A stretch of 64,000 nucleotides of DNA from an uncultured Bdellovibrionales bacterium (GCA_964416595.1 CAYQES010000003.1:1419-65418); one strand, 5' to 3'; positions 22,157 through 64,000 are shown, numbered from the stretch's first letter. Numbers and translations are program-made. The notes: generated by a model from the sequence alone, not told the origin.

Positions 22157-23278
22157 TTAGTACGCGAGGCGCTTAAGGCGTATCAATTCAACTTGCTCAT
22201 CCTCTGGAATATTCGTGCCCGCGCTACCGGAAAATCCTTCAGCAACCGCGAATTCCAAAGCCCCGTAACAAGATTTGGCTACTCTTGTTTTCGGATACTC
22301 AGTAATACATGCCTTTAAATACATTTCGCCAAAGCGAAAAAAGAGACTGCTAGAAATTCTCGAATAAATCTGTCCGAGATAGAGCAGAGCCTCCCCTTTA
22401 TTGGGAGATTTATCGCCTGGCGCTTCCAGCACCCGCTGGAGGAGACTCGATGCACGTAAGCGGCGCACATGGAAACTGCGCTCGAGCTCAGAAACAAGAG
22501 AGAAGTCGTCGTGACGAAGGATTTTCTTTGCTTTAGCGAGGAGGGCTGTTTCTGTCATTTTGTCGTCTTTCTCGGGAGATTCTTTTGCCCATTTCGAAAA
22601 TTCATCCGACCAAGCTTTTATTTCCTGCTTCAGATAGATGGGAAATTCATTTTTTTGAGAAATTTTTTGAAAATACTTAGCCCCACCGGCAGGATCTTCA
22701 GAAACTCGAGCATAGTAAACCGCTAGCGCTAATAGAGCTTTACGCAGATTCCACTGCCCCACTTGATTGGCAGGATACGCATCAATGATTCCCTCAAATA
22801 CAGCAACACCTTTTTTGAATTGGCGCGTGGCAAAAAAATAGTCCGCCTTGTCGATATCGGCTATTTCCTTCGTATCCAAATCAGGCCATGCAAAATCTGC
22901 TGCCTTCTTTCTGGTGTGGCAGGCAATGCACATTTGAAAAGAACTTTGTAACATATATCGAGCAAATGGTTTCGCGCCTTCGTTGAAGGTCCGATTGGCG
23001 TCCTTTATATGCTGTTGAATCATGGATAAATTCACCTTCAAGGCCGGGTCATTAGAAAATGTCCCTTTACCGAGGTGAGTTAGGTGAGAATCAAGTGAGT
23101 TCAGCGATTTTTTTATCGCCGCCTCGTTGGCGGGTGCTAGAAAATCTGCATCGGTGAGGAGATATTTTTGCAGAGCTGAAATCTCGGTGGCTAGGGCATG
23201 CATATCTGGGCGCGGATCTTTATCATTCGCAAGAGCGGAGTTAAACACTAGAGCAACTAAAAAGATAAAAAGCTTCAT
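22157..23278 (-). CDS. secreted protein with a single CxxCH heme-binding motif and TPR-like helical repeats
   Basis: Signal peptide (MKLFIFLVALVFNSALA) and a CIACH motif. Confidence 0.5.
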   Translation of the reverse strand: MKLFIFLVALVFNSALANDKDPRPDMHALATEISALQKYLLTDADFLAPANEAAIKKSLNSLDSHLTHLGKGTFSNDPALKVNLSMIQQHIKDANRTFNEGAKPFARYMLQSSFQMCIACHTRKKAADFAWPDLDTKEIADIDKADYFFATRQFKKGVAVFEGIIDAYPANQVGQWNLRKALLALAVYYARVSEDPAGGAKYFQKISQKNEFPIYLKQEIKAWSDEFSKWAKESPEKDDKMTETALLAKAKKILRHDDFSLVSELERSFHVRRLRASSLLQRVLEAPGDKSPNKGEALLYLGQIYSRISSSLFFRFGEMYLKACITEYPKTRVAKSCYGALEFAVAEGFSGSAGTNIPEDEQVELIRLKRLAY

Positions 23279-23718
23279 TTTTCCTCCATTGTAATTTTCT
23301 TCCAAACGTACAAAAGCTCTTCTTCGCCTAGGGCTAAACGCAAAACCCAGTTACCATTTCGAAATGTAAAAGGCGTTCTCGTTTCACGACCATTCTGCAT
23401 ATCTGGATCTCGGCTGCATCCATAACTGTTATTAGGATCCACCCAATACACCCGATCAATCAAATGGCCATTTTCCACTCTATAGTACCCGCGCCGCTCG
23501 CAATGTTCATTTTGGCCTTCATGCCACCAGTAGAGCCGGCTCTGGCCATTGGGAAGAAATTCGTAGCGTAGACGAAGAGTTGCTCCGGGCCCTTCCGGCA
23601 TTTCTTGGCCTTTGTAGATTTTCATAAAATAGGCCCATCGGCCCACGATAGAATCTGATGCCCTCGCGCTGCTAGAAAATATGGATAGAACCACAACTAC
23701 CAGTGCGAGGAATCTCAT
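23275..23718 (-). CDS. small secreted hypothetical protein (possible lipocalin-like / protease partner)
   Basis: Signal peptide. The start overlaps the stop of the upstream M4 protease gene (TAATG). Confidence 0.5.
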   Translation of the reverse strand: MRFLALVVVVLSIFSSSARASDSIVGRWAYFMKIYKGQEMPEGPGATLRLRYEFLPNGQSRLYWWHEGQNEHCERRGYYRVENGHLIDRVYWVDPNNSYGCSRDPDMQNGRETRTPFTFRNGNWVLRLALGEEELLYVWKKITMEEK

Positions 23719-56796: not shown

Positions 56797-57809
56797 GCTT
56801 TCCCGAACTTGTTTTTTTTGAGAGCTTATTGGAATCCTTAAATGGCAAGGGCCGCGTGCAACAACACGCCACGATTAAACACGGCACCGAAACATTTCCC
56901 ATTTATAGCGCAACTTTTGGTTCCGAAGATCCCCAAGCCCCCACTTTTGCTCTAGTGGGCGGAGTGCATGGCAAAGAAAAAATTGGCTCCCAGGTGGTAC
57001 TCTCCTATCTTGAAAGCTTGATTGAGCTCATGCATTGGGACGAAATCACCAACCAAGCCTTAGAAAAATCCCGAATCGTTTTTTTGCCCATTGTAAATCC
57101 TGTGGGCATGTTTCTTTTACGCCGAGGTAATGGCAATCGAGTGGATCTTATGCGCAATGCCCCCACGGAAAATGCCTCCCCTGTGGTACCGCTCTTAAGC
57201 GGGCAGCGCTTCTCCCCTTACCTGCCATGGTACCGGGGCGAAAAGGATGCTCCCATGGAAGCAGAAGCCCAAGTGCTCTGCAATCTCATGCGCCAAGAAC
57301 TTTTCCCAGCAAAGGTGAGCATTGCCATCGATTGCCACTCAGGCTACGGCTCCCTGGATCGTTTGTGGTTTCCCTACTGCCGCTCCCTAGAGCCCTATCC
57401 CGATATTGCGGAAGCTTATGCTTTACGAAATCTCATGGATAATACCTACCCCAACCATGTGTACCGCATGGAGCCGGGCTCCAAGGGCTATACGATCAAT
57501 GGTGATCTTTGGGATTATCTTTTTGACGAACATAAGGCCCTCTATGGCGAGAGCAAAAGATTTTTTCCTCTCACCTTGGAAATGGGTTCTTGGTTATGGC
57601 TGAAAAAAAATCCTATTCAATTGTTTTCTGCCATGGGTCTGTATCACCCGATGCACCTTCACCGTCATAAACGAATTTTGCGCCGGCACATTACACTTCT
57701 AGATTTTTTGCATAAAGCCGTGATCTCACCCGCGCAATGGGCTTTCCTCAATAGCGCCGCCAAAGCAGATTTACGTAAAGGCGCCTCTGACTACTGGTAC
57801 GAAGAGTGA
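56793..57809 (+). CDS. M14-like zinc carboxypeptidase / succinylglutamate desuccinylase-aspartoacylase superfamily protein
   Basis: GGVHGKEKIG (HGxE), VNPVGM, NGNRVDLMRNAP and IDCHSG zinc-ligand motifs. Confidence 0.55.
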   Translation: MSFPELVFFESLLESLNGKGRVQQHATIKHGTETFPIYSATFGSEDPQAPTFALVGGVHGKEKIGSQVVLSYLESLIELMHWDEITNQALEKSRIVFLPIVNPVGMFLLRRGNGNRVDLMRNAPTENASPVVPLLSGQRFSPYLPWYRGEKDAPMEAEAQVLCNLMRQELFPAKVSIAIDCHSGYGSLDRLWFPYCRSLEPYPDIAEAYALRNLMDNTYPNHVYRMEPGSKGYTINGDLWDYLFDEHKALYGESKRFFPLTLEMGSWLWLKKNPIQLFSAMGLYHPMHLHRHKRILRRHITLLDFLHKAVISPAQWAFLNSAAKADLRKGASDYWYEE

Positions 57810-58552
57810 ACACAGAAAAAACAGAAAATTGGTTTTTCATGCGGGGCCTAGTGCGGGAAGCGGGCCACTGGAGTGGGTTTTTAGAAAAATTCGCCGCCGC
57901 CTTTCCTCACCGCAATGTGATCGCTCTTGATACACCAGGAAATGGCCAACGGTTTCGAGAACCAAGCCCCTGCTCTATTCACGAAATGGCAGAAAAAGTG
58001 CGAGCAGAATTTCTGCAAACCCGCGGCCAAGAAAATTATCTTTTCGCTTTGTCCCTGGGCGCTATGGTGGGTTTGCAATGGATGCATAAATATCCCGATG
58101 ATTTTAAAAGTGCCGTGCTGGTGAATACTTCTTTAAAAGGAGTGTGCCCATTCTACCAACGCATGCTTCCGAAAAATTATGGAACTATTTTGCGAATGAT
58201 GTTTAGTAAAGATTTACTCTTTCGGGAAAAAAACATTCTCCGCATGACAAGCCAAAGGGCCAAACAATTCCCGCAACTCCCGCAGCATTGGGCAGATTTG
58301 CAAAAGAAACGGCCCGTGTCCTTGAAAAACGCCATTTCGCAGATCTTCGCAGCCGCCACTTTTCAACCGCCAGCAGAAAAACCCCGCACTAAAATTTTGC
58401 TCTTAAATAGCGCCCGGGATGAATTAGTGGCACCAAGCTGTTCGGAAAAGATTGCAAAATATTGGAATGTACCGCTGAAAACAAATCCACATGCTGGCCA
58501 TGATATCACGCTGGATGAACCTGAATGGGTGTTAGAGCAGTTACGCTTTTAA
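57806..58552 (+). CDS. alpha/beta-fold hydrolase
   Basis: Nucleophile elbow ALSLGAMVG (GxSxG), ~250 aa. Confidence 0.6.
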   Translation: MNTEKTENWFFMRGLVREAGHWSGFLEKFAAAFPHRNVIALDTPGNGQRFREPSPCSIHEMAEKVRAEFLQTRGQENYLFALSLGAMVGLQWMHKYPDDFKSAVLVNTSLKGVCPFYQRMLPKNYGTILRMMFSKDLLFREKNILRMTSQRAKQFPQLPQHWADLQKKRPVSLKNAISQIFAAATFQPPAEKPRTKILLLNSARDELVAPSCSEKIAKYWNVPLKTNPHAGHDITLDEPEWVLEQLRF

Positions 58553-59410
58553 GAGCGAGTCCGCAAAAAGAGCGCCAAATAACAAAAACAAATACAGGAT
58601 CGAAATCCAAAAAAGTTTTTTGGAATCCTTTCGTTCTTTGGTTCTAAGAAGCTTTACAGTTTGCCACAAATAAAATGCACCCAGGCCCAAAGCCGCTCCG
58701 AGATAAATCTGGCCGCTATAGCCTAAGAAATAGGGCAAAACTGTGACTGGCACTAACACCACTGTGTAGAAAAAGATTTCGAAACGGGTGCGCCGCTCGC
58801 CGTGGGTTACGGGCAACATGGGAATACTAGCCGCTCGGTACTCATCTTGGATCGCGATCGCGAGGGCCCAAAAGTGTGGAGGGGTCCAAAGGAAGACCAC
58901 CAAAAAAAGTACCCACGCTAAAAAAGAAAGTTCGCCCGTGGCGGCGGCCCAGCCGATCAAAGGTGCCGTGGCGCCCGCGGCTCCGCCAATCACAATATTG
59001 TAAGGCGTGCGCCTTTTTAGCCAAAGAGTGTAGATGCCCACATAAAAAGCGATGGTGAAAAAACTCCAAAAGGCCGCTACCCAATTTACTGCCAAGAGAT
59101 AATAGGCCACAGCCACAGAACCGGTGACTAATCCAAAAATCGCCGCGCGCTCCGGCTCGATTCGTTGCAAAGGAATCGGGCGACGCCGCCGGGTGCGCTC
59201 CATTTGTGAATCGATATCGCGATCAAAATACATATTGAGCGCGTTGGCAGAACCCGCCGTGAGACCCATCGCCACCATCACTAAAAAAAGTTTCAAGGGA
59301 TCTTGCAGGAGAGAGCCTTCGGCCACGATGGCCGCAAAACCCGTGACCAAAAAAAGCAATACAATGGTGGGCTTCATCAAGCTAAAATAGGCAGAAATTC
59401 TTGCGGTCAT
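58541..59410 (-). CDS. ctaB: protoheme IX farnesyltransferase (heme O synthase)
   Basis: UbiA-family motifs (NMYFDRDIDSQMERTRRRP) and 9 TM segments. Confidence 0.85.
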   Translation of the reverse strand: MTARISAYFSLMKPTIVLLFLVTGFAAIVAEGSLLQDPLKLFLVMVAMGLTAGSANALNMYFDRDIDSQMERTRRRRPIPLQRIEPERAAIFGLVTGSVAVAYYLLAVNWVAAFWSFFTIAFYVGIYTLWLKRRTPYNIVIGGAAGATAPLIGWAAATGELSFLAWVLFLVVFLWTPPHFWALAIAIQDEYRAASIPMLPVTHGERRTRFEIFFYTVVLVPVTVLPYFLGYSGQIYLGAALGLGAFYLWQTVKLLRTKERKDSKKLFWISILYLFLLFGALFADSLLKA

Positions 59411-59439
59411 TTAAGCCACAAAATACAAGAAAATGGAGT

Positions 59440-60339
59440 CTATTGCCAACGGGAAGCGGCAGAAAACGATAAGCGTACCAAAAGAATCCAGAGGGTTTCC
59501 GCCCACAGAAGGTGCAAAATCTGCATCCAGATGGGAGCTAGCAATAAAACGTTCATAAAGCCCACGGCTAAATTTCCTGCTGTGAGCCATAAAAGGAAAA
59601 AAGCTGCCTTTTTTAGGTTTGGGAAACGTTCTGAGAGGTTCGTGAGCCAAACCCAGAGGTATCCCACCCAGAGCACCGCGAGAACTGGATGAAAAAGCCG
59701 GATTTGCTGCAAAAAGTGCCGTTTAGAAAATTTATCCTGCAGCTCTTGGCCTAAATCCGTAACAGGAAAAAGAGTGTCGCCGAGGGCCGTCATGGCCCCA
59801 AGCGCTCCCACCAAAGCAAAGCCCACGAGTACAAGCAACCAACGGAGCCGCTCTTTGCCGCCCTCTGGCCACCACCAGCGGGGAGTTTTTTCTTCCGCCG
59901 CCAAGGCCAATACGGTGAGTGAGCCCAACAAAAAGAGGGTATTCACCAGATGGAAAGAAATGGAAATCACCCGGTCTAAAGATTGGTCGTGCTCCACCAA
60001 ACGGAGCAACACCAACATGGCACCAATCAAGGCTTCTAAAAGCACGGCCAGTAAGGAAAGATACGCAGCTTTTCGCTGAAAGCTTTTTTTAGGGAAAAGC
60101 CGCAAGGTCCACCCAAAAAGCACGGCCACAAACACCAAACAAAAGCCCGAGCTCAAGCGGTGGGAATATTCAATCAGGGTTTTTAGTTGCTCGCTCCGGG
60201 GCACCACTTCCCCATTGCAAAGGGGCCAATGGGCGCCGCAGCCGGCGCCGGAGCCCGTGGCGCGCACAAAAGCGCCCCATAAAATCACGGCTAAGCAATA
60301 AACAAGAGTGAACCAGGCGAATTTTTTGTAAAACGCCAT
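59440..60339 (-). CDS. ctaA: heme A synthase (CtaA/COX15 family)
   Basis: CGAHWPLC Cys loop and conserved TM histidines (YSHRL, SFHLVN). Position between ctaB and the oxidase structural genes fits. Confidence 0.65.
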   Translation of the reverse strand: MAFYKKFAWFTLVYCLAVILWGAFVRATGSGAGCGAHWPLCNGEVVPRSEQLKTLIEYSHRLSSGFCLVFVAVLFGWTLRLFPKKSFQRKAAYLSLLAVLLEALIGAMLVLLRLVEHDQSLDRVISISFHLVNTLFLLGSLTVLALAAEEKTPRWWWPEGGKERLRWLLVLVGFALVGALGAMTALGDTLFPVTDLGQELQDKFSKRHFLQQIRLFHPVLAVLWVGYLWVWLTNLSERFPNLKKAAFFLLWLTAGNLAVGFMNVLLLAPIWMQILHLLWAETLWILLVRLSFSAASRWQ

Positions 60340-60351
60340 AAATATTTTTTA

Positions 60352-61149
60352 TTAATTCTGCAGCATCCGCTCGATGGCAAAATCAATGGGCAAAGCTACT
60401 TTAGCGGGGCCAGAACCTTCGCCACCCACTCCATCTTCTTTTACGGCCTGTGCAAAACGATCATCAGCCTTACTATTGGTTTGGATGTCTTTTGTAAGCG
60501 AGTGTACATAGTGGATCAAGGCAATACGATCAGAGGGGGGTAAGGCTTTATAAGAAGCCATGCCCGTGCCGGGAATTCCATAAGCCAAGGTTACGTACAT
60601 GGATTTAGTGGAAGAACCATTTTTCCAATCACTCGCGGAGCCCGAAAAATTCCGTGGTTTCGGATCGAGGGCTGCCCCCCCCACTCCATCCCCATGGCCA
60701 GCCACGCCATGGCATACGGCGCAGTTAACGTCGTAAAGAGCTTTACCTTTAGCCACGAGAGCCGTGCCGCCATTCATGAGTTTATCAAATTCTTCTTGAG
60801 ATAAAGGGCCAGTGGTAGATTTCACCACAGCAGGCTTCGGCTGCGGACGTGTCCAAAGATCGGAAGCAGAGATACCGATCAAGAGTATGAGGGCTGCAAA
60901 GGAGCTCAGGATATAGGCTCGGTTAAGGTTGGTATCGTACTTTAAACCCATGAAAAAGAGCATCACCAAGGATGCCTTGGCGGTAGCAATCCCCAGAGAA
61001 ACAAAAACGTTGGCCGTACTACCAAAATCCACGTAAGAAGCACCAACGGTTAGCACCGTAAGCACCAACAGAGCTCCTAGGGTTTTATAATAAATCCCAA
61101 AGGGAACGATGTGATGGCTATGGTTATGATTGTCGTGTTTATGTTCCAT
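60352..61149 (-). CDS. caa3-type oxidase subunit IV-like membrane domain fused to a C-terminal mono-heme cytochrome c domain
   Basis: N-terminal 2 TM segments with a COX4_pro-like pattern (HSHHIVPFGIYYKTLGALLVLTV...); C-terminal CAVCH. Start taken at MEHKH with a GAGGA RBS. Confidence 0.55.
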   Translation of the reverse strand: MEHKHDNHNHSHHIVPFGIYYKTLGALLVLTVLTVGASYVDFGSTANVFVSLGIATAKASLVMLFFMGLKYDTNLNRAYILSSFAALILLIGISASDLWTRPQPKPAVVKSTTGPLSQEEFDKLMNGGTALVAKGKALYDVNCAVCHGVAGHGDGVGGAALDPKPRNFSGSASDWKNGSSTKSMYVTLAYGIPGTGMASYKALPPSDRIALIHYVHSLTKDIQTNSKADDRFAQAVKEDGVGGEGSGPAKVALPIDFAIERMLQN

Positions 61150-61157
61150 AAAAATCC

Positions 61158-61820
61158 TCACACCACCAAATAAAGAAGAGGGAAAAGGAAAATCCAGATC
61201 AAATCCACAATGTGCCAGTAGAGTCCTACGAACTCTACGGCCGCAAATTTACGGGAATTGAAATGCCCACGACCCATACGCCAATACACCCAGGCGATGG
61301 CACCCATGCCGATCAATACGTGTATGCCGTGGAGGCCTGTCATCACGAAATAAAAGGAATAGAAGAGGGCAACGTTGGCGGATTTAAAATCCGTAGATGT
61401 AAAAAAATCTCCAGGCAAAATACCGTGGTGGATTTTTTCACTATATTCAAAGTATTTGATCACGAGGAAGATGCACGCGCAGAGGAAAGTGATGATTAGC
61501 ATCAACTTAGATTTTCCACGCTCATCCCGTTGGATATAAGCAATCGCTAGCGCCATAGTGAGGGAACTCACGAGCAGCACCACCGTGTTCACAGCGCCCA
61601 TCACTTTATTCAAGTGGTGGTGGGCTTCCCGAAACATTTCAGGATAGAGATAGTTGAATAGACCATAGCCCGCAAAGAGCACGCCGAATAACATTACCTC
61701 GGTTACGAGGAATAACCACATGCCGAGTTTGCCAGCCTCGAACTCGTGTTCGATGCTGTCAAAGTGGTGGGCATGATCCATATGTCCGTGCTCTGCGCTC
61801 ATTGGTGTTCCTTTCTCCAA
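61158..61820 (-). CDS. ctaE: cytochrome c oxidase subunit III
   Basis: HHFDSIEHEFEAGKLGMWLFLVTEVMLFG, typical COX3. Confidence 0.85.
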   Translation of the reverse strand: MEKGTPMSAEHGHMDHAHHFDSIEHEFEAGKLGMWLFLVTEVMLFGVLFAGYGLFNYLYPEMFREAHHHLNKVMGAVNTVVLLVSSLTMALAIAYIQRDERGKSKLMLIITFLCACIFLVIKYFEYSEKIHHGILPGDFFTSTDFKSANVALFYSFYFVMTGLHGIHVLIGMGAIAWVYWRMGRGHFNSRKFAAVEFVGLYWHIVDLIWIFLFPLLYLVV

Positions 61821-61822
61821 TC

Positions 61823-63421
61823 TTAGGTGGGCTTCACGCCGTATTCATAAGGACCAGTTGTCACCGTAGGAGTTTTTGCAAAATTTTCTAATACAGGAGG
61901 TGATTCCGCAAACCACTCTAGAGTGCGCCCACCCCAAGGATTAGCAGGCGCTTTTGCGCCACGGAAGCAGGAGATCACACAATTCACAAGAATGAAGAAA
62001 ATCCCCAGAGCAATACCCCAGGAGCCTACAGTGGAAATCAAATTCCAGCTCGCATACATAGGTTCATAATCATGGTAGCGGCGGGGCATGCCGTTATATC
62101 CGGCCACAAATTGCGCCAGGAAGGTAACGTTAAAGCCGATGATAAAGCACCAGAACGAAACCTTGCCCCAGAACTCGTTGTACATTTTTCCCGTAATTTT
62201 AGGGAACCAATAAAAGATCCCAGCAAAGAGGGAAATGGCGGCGCCGCCCATCATCACGTAATGGAAGTGAGCTACCACAAAGTACGTATCATGAAAGTGA
62301 ATGTCTGCGGACAAAGTGCCAAGCATAATGCCCGTGATCCCGCCGATACCGAAAGTGAAAAGGAACCCTAAAGCATACAACATGGGCGTAGCTAAGCTCA
62401 CGGAACCCCGGTACATGGTGGCCACCCAGTTAAACATTTTCACGGCCGAAGGCACTGCTGTAGCCATGGTAAGCAATGAAAAGATAAAGTTCGTGAGCGG
62501 GCTTTGGCCACTAGTGAACATATGGTGCCCCCACACAAGAAAGCTCACCAAAGCTAAACCAAGGGAAGAGAATGCAATCGCCCTATAACCAAAAATTGTT
62601 TTCTGCGACATCGTGGGAATCACTTCAGAAATGATGCCCATAGCCGGCAAGATCATAATGTACACGGCTGGGTGAGAGTAGAACCAGAAAAAGTGCTGAA
62701 AAAGCACGGGATCGCCGCCAAGTTTTGGATCAAAAAAACCAATGCCCACGGTGCGCTCGATCACGAGCAACAATAACGTGATACCGATAACGGGCGTGGC
62801 CAATACCTGCAAGATACTAGTGCTATAGATGGCCCACACAAAAAGTGGCATGCGGAAAAAACTCATGCCCGGGCAACGTAAAGTATGCACCGTAACGATA
62901 AAGTTTAGGCCCGTAAGGATCGAAGCAAAACCCATGAAGAACACGCCCACTACCATGCTCACCACGGCGGCCCCCGTGCGAATGGAATAAGGAGTGTAGA
63001 ATGTCCAACCCGTATCAGCGCCAGGGCCATGGAGAATGCCATACAAGTTAATTGCCATGCCCAATAGCAGCAGATAGTAACTTAATAAGTTAAGACGAGG
63101 AAACGCCACATCCTTGGCGCCAATCATGATCGGCAAAAGAAAGTTTCCAAGAGCGCCGGGGATTGCAGGAATGATGAACCAGAACACCATCACCGCGCCA
63201 TGCAAGGTGAAGAGGCGGTTGTAGGTGTTGGGATCAAAAAATTGTTGGCCAGGGAACATAAGTTCCAAACGAACTAGCAGCGCAAAAATTCCGCCCACGC
63301 AAAGAGAGAGCAAGGTGGTTACGAAATACAAAATTCCGATCCGCTTGTGATCCAGAGTGATCAGCCAGTTTTTTATTCCATGGCTAGCTTCATAAAAATT
63401 CACATTTGCAGCATGACCCAT
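61823..63421 (-). CDS. ctaD: cytochrome c oxidase subunit I
   Basis: Canonical COX1 (12 TM segments; GHPEVY-like, heme and CuB His ligands). Confidence 0.95.
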
Positions 63422-63431
63422 ACGACATTCC

Positions 63432-64000
63432 TCACTTCAAGGTCTTGATATACTCAATCAACTGATTCACTTCTTCATCGGACAAAAGCCCACGGTAAGT
63501 AGGCATGGAAGGACTAAATCCCCGCACGATTTTTTTCATGGGATCCATCACGGATTCTCTGATGTAATTTTCGTCCGCCTTTACTTTAGTGCCAGCCACC
63601 AATTCTTGTTCAGAGCCAAAGAGCCCTTTAAATGTGGGACCCACGGCTGGCTCCCCATTCACGCTATGGCAAGCGTTGCAAGAACGGCTTTTATATACTT
63701 GGTACCCTAGCTGGGCCATGGTTTGGGTGGGAGGCGGAGGAACAGTTCCCCCGTGTTCACTGGCAGCCACCACAGGTACTTTGTACATACCCTCTTGCCA
63801 CTTTTGGTAATCTTCGGGCTCAAGCACATGCACCTTGCCAATCATTTTGGAGTGGGAAGTGCCGCAATACTCAGCGCAGAAAATGTGGAAAATGCCCGTT
63901 TTTGTGGCCGTGAAATGAAGGGCCGTGAATTGGCCGGGAACGGTATCCAGCTTCACGCGAAACTCTGGAATGAAAAAACTGTGGAGAACGTCTTTCGACG
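63432..64000 (-). CDS. ctaC: cytochrome c oxidase subunit II with a fused C-terminal cytochrome c domain (caa3-type); 5-prime end lies beyond the window
   Basis: CuA site [15 protein letters not shown] and C-terminal CNACH. No start codon within the window. Confidence 0.9.

Follow-up and report, generated by a model that had tools for sequence, protein, structure and literature searches.

A cytochrome c domain fused to subunit IV of a caa3-type oxidase in Bdellovibrionota, a candidate heme c relay from Alternative Complex III

The operon of a caa3-type cytochrome c oxidase lies on the minus strand at the end of a 64,000-nucleotide stretch of DNA (the window) from an uncultured Bdellovibrionales bacterium (GCA_964416595.1, CAYQES010000003.1:1419-65418). 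Its subunit IV gene was found to encode a fusion protein, in which a subunit IV membrane domain is followed by a mono-heme cytochrome c domain. The enzyme predicted from these genes is an A2-type caa3 oxidase with an extra c heme on subunit IV, so that subunits II and IV each carry one c-type heme. Because a gene cluster for Alternative Complex III (ACIII) lies directly upstream of the operon in relatives, and because a free-standing homologue of the fused domain is encoded between the ACIII and aa3 oxidase genes in Ignavibacteriota, we propose with moderate confidence that the fused domain would relay electrons from ACIII to subunit II/CuA of the oxidase through a built-in heme c.

The caa3 operon and its subunit IV–cytochrome c fusion

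A preliminary description of the window had given the minus-strand gene order as ctaC, ctaD, ctaE, fusion gene, ctaA and ctaB. This order is borne out by the open reading frames (ORFs) found there, all of which score above the curated Pfam/NCBIfam cut-offs:

63432..>64000, minus: ctaC, subunit II, C-terminal 188 aa (the window ends within the gene), with a CuA cupredoxin and a mono-heme cytochrome c domain (CNACH); PF00116 48.5 bits, PF00034 41.0 bits
61823..63421, minus: ctaD, subunit I, A2-type; TIGR02891 693.6 bits against a cut-off of 670.75
61158..61820, minus: ctaE, subunit III, short five-helix type; PF00510 68.7 bits
60352..61149, minus: subunit IV::cytochrome c fusion gene, 265 aa plus stop; PF03626, TIGR02229 and PF00034
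59440..60339, minus: ctaA, heme A synthase; PF02628 123 bits
58541..59410, minus: ctaB, heme O synthase, last gene of the operon; TIGR01473 314.3 bits, NF003349 326.4 bits

The operon is tight, with gaps of 8-29 nt between genes. The start of ctaE is likely the ATG at 61802, giving 214 aa as in the gene call of L081, an 8.7-kb Logan contig that is identical to the window and extends 1.7 kb past its end. The ATG of the fusion gene follows the ctaE stop by 8 nt, and a GAGGA-like ribosome-binding site overlaps that stop. A scan of the operon for promoter-like and terminator-like sites found no excess of them over shuffled sequence. On L081, the full-length CtaC (L081:1734-2714) is a 326-aa protein with COX2 and Cytochrom_C domains and one CxxCH, and a SCO gene lies upstream of ctaC. 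The earlier assignment to the caa3 type therefore holds, since subunit II carries CuA plus one heme c and subunit I is closest to that of the Thermus caa3 oxidase. The best solved relative of CtaD is the Thermus caa3 subunit I/III (2YEV_A, 5.5e-150), and its helix VI motif aligns with FWFYSHPTVY of Thermus (common form FWFYSHP(A/T)VY), with Tyr-Ser in place of the A1 glutamate. We take this Tyr-Ser signature in helix VI to denote the A2 type of the Pereira/Sousa classification.

The fusion protein is divided as follows, with helices and linker taken from an AlphaFold2 (AF2) model:

60847..61116, minus: residues 12-101, subunit IV (COX4_pro / TIGR02229) membrane domain; hidden Markov model (HMM) matches, AF2 helices
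60799..60846, minus: residues 102-117, Pro-rich linker RPQPKPAVVKSTTGPL; non-helical, of low confidence in AF2
60436..60798, minus: residues 118-238, mono-heme class I cytochrome c domain; PF00034, predicted local distance difference test score (pLDDT) >90
60709..60723, minus: residues 143-147, CAVCH, heme attachment motif
60559..60561, minus: Met197, presumed axial ligand, invariant in the alignment
60355..60435, minus: residues 239-265, C-terminal tail, Gly-rich and then the terminal helix LPIDFAIERML (253-263), a candidate docking element

The N-terminal region matches PF03626 (COX4_pro) with 52.7 bits against a cut-off of 28.9 (residues 23-91, profile positions 3-71 of 72) and TIGR02229 (caa3_sub_IV) with 84.1 bits against 37.25 (residues 12-101, profile positions 2-92 of 92), and PF00034 is matched over residues 132-218 with 50.6 bits against 21.3. 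The two halves are thus what they had been suspected to be, a subunit IV N-terminus and a mono-heme (CAVCH) cytochrome c C-terminus. Some details of the preliminary description have to be revised. The length of 266 aa given there counts the stop codon, the protein itself having 265. Instead of two transmembrane (TM) helices there are three, at residues 17-39, 44-66 and 74-100 with pLDDT of about 70-92, in the model obtained with the family alignment (mean pLDDT 81.4). The C-terminal part of about 150 aa does contain the mono-heme domain, but the domain proper takes up only about 120 aa of it and is followed by a 27-aa tail. In the same model, the terminal helix spans residues 255-264 and the low-confidence, non-helical linker residues 101-117. 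P254, D256, F257 and A258 of the tail are conserved in the family alignment. The TM half is assigned to subunit IV on the strength of the curated HMMs, the topology and the operon position.

The c-type heme is attached to cytochromes in the periplasm. From this requirement and from the K/R-containing loop 2, the N-terminus is deduced to be inside, and with an odd number of TM helices, three, the heme domain comes to lie in the periplasm. In 134 of 140 fusion proteins, 40-49 aa separate CxxCH from the predicted end of TM3 (median 43). Helices at the N-terminus of the heme domain itself account for about 27 of these residues, and the linker for the remaining 16 or so. The constant tether length together with the conserved terminal helix argues for a heme domain held at a fixed position on the oxidase surface.

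The cytoplasmic N-terminus, residues 1-13 (61111..61149, minus), is His-rich: MEHKHDNHNHSHH. In a 36-sequence alignment, H12 and H13 are near-invariant family-wide and the count of upstream His varies. The His-rich segment may be metal-binding or a feature typical of COX4_pro proteins.

Conservation of the fusion and the neighbouring ACIII genes

Relatives of the fusion protein were searched in a protein collection clustered at 90% identity, and the best 120 of 167 matches were examined. Except for four short fragments, all of them combine PF03626 with PF00034/PF13442, at identities down to 38%. Their named sources are Bdellovibrionota, Bacteriovoracia, Oligoflexia and Bdellovibrionales, and independent assemblies contribute more than 110 clusters with this reading frame. 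When 36 diverse members were aligned, again with identity down to 38%, C143, C146, H147 and M197 proved invariant, as did the GDG motif, R166 and W175. The invariance of the heme ligands across such deep divergence indicates selection for heme binding. Among the top 150 matches of an exhaustive profile search against 1.84 billion representatives at 50% identity, about 31 were full-length fusion clusters. Eleven of these are 349-378 aa long with two matched stretches, and both of those examined (P0121 and P0133) have a second CxxCH domain.

Genomes, one per species, were then scanned with an alignment of 12 closer sequences, and the best 80 loci of 429 relatives were analyzed. The loci fall into two groups, with 43 from Bdellovibrionota (L081 included) and 38 of an Ignavibacteriota type. 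The order ctaC-ctaD-ctaE-fusion is invariant among the Bdellovibrionota loci. All 43 carry the fusion, four of them with two CxxCH motifs, and a separate subunit IV ORF was found in none. Subunit II has exactly one CxxCH wherever it is visible (35 of 35 loci), which excludes a ccaa3 oxidase. An artefact of frameshift or read-through is likewise ruled out, by the more than 110 clusters and the 43 of 43 loci.

Several variants of the fusion were observed. Thirteen of 140 members are diheme fusions of about 350-378 aa, with a second CxxCH domain at the C-terminus (L011, L012, L018 and L038; P0106, P0110, P0116, P0121 and P0133). Four outliers have linkers of 82-145 residues between TM3 and CxxCH (P0185, P0223, P0136 and P0228), which are Ala/Pro-rich in the two examined, P0185 and P0223. 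Loci L083/L084 and L085:10001-10978 belong with these long-linker COX4_pro::cytochrome c fusions. At L085, one of the four outliers is preceded by ActB-F, an extra cytochrome c, SCO, COX2, COX1 and COX3 genes and followed by a diheme cytochrome c gene. The CtaD of L085 is 52% identical to that of the window, and the fusion thus also occurs in a more distant lineage, with a putatively flexible tether. The COX2 gene call of L085 consists of two ORFs (158 and 210 aa), owing perhaps to a frameshift, perhaps to a genuine split of the gene. One cluster with Bdellovibrionota-type ACIII, caa3 and fusion genes lies on a 982-kb contig labelled 'Lysobacteraceae bacterium' (L014, JAGTJX010000003.1). Its CtaD is 60% identical to the window's, and this metagenome-assembled genome is probably mislabelled or mis-binned.

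With Ignavibacterium proteins and then Bacteriovoracia proteins as queries, genes for ActB, C, D, E and F were found directly upstream of the oxidase operon, on the same strand, in 28 of the 30 Bdellovibrionota loci with enough upstream sequence, 14 loci being too short to judge. ActD of locus L001 was confirmed by Pfam (195.9 bits). The arrangement is well seen in L082, an independently annotated contig of 3.08 Mb, where a Fer4-rich ActB, an NrfD-type ActC, ActD, a cytochrome c ActE and ActF are followed by a 257-aa minus-strand ORF and a SCO-like gene, and then by COX2+CytC, COX1, COX3, COX4_pro+CytC, CtaA and CtaB. A hydrolase, an M14 peptidase and an MFS gene come next, and genes of these three kinds flank the operon in the window too, where the hydrolase gene converges with ctaB:

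57806..58552, plus: hydrolase gene

An ORF of about 255 aa on the opposite strand is conserved between ActF and SCO (L001:5013-5789 (-) and L082:5027-5800 (-)), with a counterpart upstream of SCO at L081:77-838 (-). This spacer ORF has no Pfam family and appears to have a hydrophobic C-terminal segment. The L081 copy, of 253 aa, is 40% identical to that of L001 (E = 3e-58). Given the spacer ORF shared with L001 and L082 and the synteny, ACIII genes likely lie just past window position 64000 in the window's organism.

Elsewhere in the window, the only CxxCH ORF outside the oxidase operon is a 382-aa ORF at 22160..23305 (-) with a single CIACH and no Pfam match, which could be an uncharacterised heme protein.

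Origin of the heme domain and comparison with known oxidases

The 38 loci of the Ignavibacteriota-type group, in which the heme domain alone matches, come mainly from Ignavibacteriota, Melioribacter and Kapaibacteria, with one Sumerlaeota locus. The gene order in Ignavibacterium (L060) is ActA, ActB, ActC, fused ActD-E, ActF, a 217-aa cytochrome c, SCO, CoxI, CoxIII, COX4_pro and CoxII. The 217-aa cytochrome c (L060:9956-10609), encoded between ActF and SCO, has one N-terminal helix. Subunit IV is here a separate COX4_pro protein of 105 aa (45.7 bits), and CoxII (L060:14009-14665, 218 aa) is without a heme c domain, subunit II being heme-less in 29 of the 32 Ignavibacteriota-type loci where it is visible. 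L060 is from a metagenome-assembled genome of Ignavibacterium album, and by gene order L060:9956-10609 is probably IALB_1392. The I. album oxidase has been described as caa3-type (PMC3362086), and the free-standing cytochrome c is not discussed in the text of that paper. With no heme c domain on its subunit II, this oxidase would have to rely for its c heme on the anchored, free-standing cytochrome c encoded between ActF and SCO.

For comparison of the heme domains, they were cut out with a profile and aligned pairwise. The mean identities of the fused domain are:

to the free-standing Ignavibacteriota cytochrome: 46% (maximum 60%)
to Bdellovibrionota ActE: 33%
to Ignavibacteriota ActE: 31%
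to the subunit II heme domain: 26%

As a scale, ActE proteins of the two groups share 50% identity. The 46% identity to the free cytochrome, against 31-33% to ActE, places the fused and free forms in one group that is distinct from ActE. Both forms share a helix before the domain, the motifs CxxCHG..G.GDG and LNPKPRNF, and a C-terminal '(L/I)P(I/V)..A' helix. Many free forms have an extra C-terminal domain without heme, which aligns with a heme-bearing domain of the Sumerlaeota protein. A copy of ActE is excluded as the source of the fused domain by the low identity and by the separate ActE lipoprotein in the adjoining act clusters, and a copy of the subunit II heme domain by the 26% identity. 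In profile and fold searches the domain has a cytochrome c fold, and its nearest solved structures are the Kuenenia diheme cytochrome 6H5L_B and ActE of three ACIII structures (6F0K_E at 3e-15; 6LOD_E, the Foldseek top match; and 8K9E_E). The fold also matches CcoP.

The caa3 oxidases of Thermus thermophilus (2YEV) and Rhodothermus marinus share with the window's enzyme CuA and one fused heme c on subunit II and the Tyr-Ser of helix VI in subunit I, but have a single c heme, on subunit II, and a cofactor-less subunit IV, where here heme c is carried by a COX4_pro-type subunit IV. In Thermus, subunits I and III are fused and subunit IV is an unrelated two-helix protein, whereas I and III are separate here. 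The N-terminal 101 residues of the window protein match subunit IV of the Bacillus subtilis CtaF / Escherichia coli CyoD type, with three TM helices and a gene right after that of subunit III. These canonical proteins of about 100-110 aa end after TM3, whereas the window protein adds 164 residues (linker, heme c domain and tail helix). The free-standing cytochrome c of Ignavibacteriota/Bacteroidota, the closest relative of the fused domain, occurs in the same ACIII and oxidase neighbourhood, but has a single N-terminal helix of its own and is encoded by a separate gene upstream of the oxidase genes, and its oxidase has a separate COX4_pro protein of about 100 aa and usually a heme-less subunit II. 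The fused domain also differs from ActE (6F0K_E, 6LOD_E, 6BTM_E and 8K9E_E), a bona fide lipoprotein of this kind being still encoded in the act cluster.

In R. marinus, the genes of the caa3 oxidase follow those of ACIII and the two complexes associate in a supercomplex, in which ACIII reduces the oxidase directly and ActE faces the heme domain of subunit II (PMC5928083). In Flavobacterium johnsoniae, the place of the subunit II heme domain is taken by an extra mobile heme c domain on the ActA N-terminus, and ActE can be dispensed with (PMC8552683, PMC5928083). The ACIII-aa3 system of F. johnsoniae resembles the present one in having a lineage-specific extra heme c domain fused to an existing subunit and, as proposed here, transfer without soluble carriers, but its extra domain is on the ACIII side, whereas the one described here belongs to the oxidase, whose subunit II keeps a heme domain as well. 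The known A-type oxidases with two c hemes have both on subunit II (PMC5492768), as do the ccaa3 oxidases of Pseudomonas (CoxM), Shewanella and Desulfovibrio, from which the window's enzyme differs in this respect. CcoP of cbb3 oxidases belongs to a C-type oxidase, has another anchor and is unrelated to subunit IV.

A second cytochrome c domain on subunit IV had been called not standard, which is correct relative to characterized oxidases but not within Bdellovibrionota, where the fusion is the rule. A catalogue of COX fusions lists COX1-COX4, COX1-COX3 and COX2-cytochrome c, and COX4-cytochrome c is absent from it (PMC4013037). No description of a subunit IV-cytochrome c fusion was found in the literature searched, which left out most subscription-journal papers. 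Fusion proteins of this kind are already in databases under the automatic names 'caa(3)-type oxidase subunit IV' and 'c-type cytochrome'. Modular heme c fusions are common in respiratory complexes, and the present one is a moderate variation on known designs.

Possible electron routes through the subunit IV heme

In the proposed relay, the three TM helices would anchor the protein beside subunits I and III, as for other COX4_pro proteins, TM3 would export the heme domain, and the linker of about 16 residues would fix it on the periplasmic face. Electrons from the ACIII heme wire (ActA/ActE) would pass to heme c of subunit IV and from there to the subunit II heme c, CuA, heme a and heme a3, and quinol-to-oxygen transfer would then proceed without a diffusible carrier. 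The step from subunit IV::c to the subunit II heme domain would be a functional analogue of CcoP feeding CcoO in cbb3 oxidases. The idea of an extra electron entry or a module for donor docking, raised in the preliminary description, is consistent with the gene context, and the likely donor can now be narrowed to ACIII, encoded upstream in relatives, a functional assignment deduced from the sequences.

Several points weigh against this relay. Subunit IV of A-type oxidases probably lies on the subunit III side, away from subunit II, and whether the 16-residue linker reaches to within tunnelling distance of the subunit II heme may be the weak point of the proposal. That the fusion protein binds heme, joins the oxidase and transfers electrons is a prediction from sequence, and the inter-domain geometry of the AF2 model is unreliable (predicted template modelling score 0.56). 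The TM part alone has no significant match to solved subunit IV chains (CyoD, QoxD) by sequence or fold, the PDB sequence search returning only spurious His-tag matches. The window stops inside ctaC and L081 1.7 kb later, so that the ACIII of the window's organism is placed there by synteny, and in two loci with the fusion (L007 and L036) ACIII was not found within about 5.8 kb upstream of SCO. In addition, the Bdellovibrionota have kept both an ActE in ACIII and a heme c on subunit II. Judged by R. marinus, these two might be enough, and a third relay heme would then be apparently redundant.

The last two points also bear on an alternative that we regard as unlikely but worth keeping in mind, namely that the fused domain is a second, independent electron entry port, which would accept electrons from soluble cytochromes c, HiPIP or periplasmic dehydrogenases in parallel to the ACIII-to-subunit II route and widen the range of donors. 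ActE and the subunit II heme domain, both kept, could form a full path by themselves, as proposed for R. marinus (PMC5928083), for whose ACIII and ActE reaction with more than one acceptor has been reported (PMC5928083, PMC8552683), and the loci L007 and L036 would fit a port that is independent of an adjoining ACIII. An entry port of this kind is, however, at odds with the strong cross-phylum association of this cytochrome c family with ACIII and oxidase clusters. The free homologue of Ignavibacteriota in particular has its gene precisely between ActF and the oxidase genes and accompanies a subunit II without heme c, which points to a path from ACIII to the oxidase.

It is improbable that the domain acts as a mobile tethered shuttle like cytochrome cy, swinging between complex III/ACIII and subunit II. 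Such a movement is more plausible for the long-linker variants, but the linker is short and near-constant in the window protein and 134 of 140 relatives, and the conserved C-terminal helix suggests a second fixed contact. Subunit IV proteins are generally non-catalytic, as a mainly structural or assembly role would have it, in which the protein stabilizes the oxidase or an ACIII-oxidase supercomplex, or aids CuA or heme insertion, with its heme off the catalytic path. Assembly factors (SCO, CtaA and CtaB) are encoded in the operon too, and electron transfer in F. johnsoniae does not need the related ActE (PMC8552683). We nevertheless consider this role very unlikely, given that the Cys, His and Met that bind heme do not vary even between very divergent members, that a second heme domain has been added in some lineages, and that the free homologue accompanies oxidases with a heme-less subunit II, where a c heme is needed. 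Least credible of all is that the protein is no oxidase subunit but an unrelated anchored cytochrome c of the CycM/cy type, as the preliminary description had considered, or a sequencing or frameshift artefact: the lack of a match between the TM part and solved subunit IV chains would fit the former, but the Pfam and TIGRFAM subunit IV models are passed by wide margins with full-length profile coverage, there are three helices and not a single anchor, the linker is not long, the gene occupies the ctaF slot 8 nt past ctaE with no other subunit IV gene in the 43 loci, and the common reading frame of independent assemblies opposes the latter.

A bolder form of the relay, which we put forward tentatively, is that the subunit IV heme c would be the obligatory bridge of a hard-wired ACIII-caa3 supercomplex, a third and undescribed wiring after those of R. 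marinus and F. johnsoniae. If so, subunit IV would sit at the ACIII-oxidase interface, and the free homologue of Ignavibacteriota/Bacteroidota would be an unrecognised stoichiometric subunit that gives the 'c' to caa3-annotated enzymes with a heme-less subunit II. The diheme and long-linker variants would then be further steps of the same modular evolution.

The handover of electrons from ACIII to the oxidase is debated, ActE being dispensable in one organism and proposed as direct donor in a second, and lineages differ in the polypeptide that bears the last heme c. The lineage-wide fusion amounts to a natural experiment that fixes the complex to which the relay belongs and, roughly, its place. 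Subunit IV, usually seen as a cofactor-less accessory, thereby gains a plausible redox role, and an uncharacterised cytochrome c family common to the ACIII and oxidase clusters of several phyla is flagged. The findings also suggest that some caa3-annotated oxidases, such as that of I. album, may obtain their c heme from a separate protein. Bdellovibrio-type predators respire inside the periplasm of their prey, and it may be speculated that a carrier-free chain could matter for their physiology.

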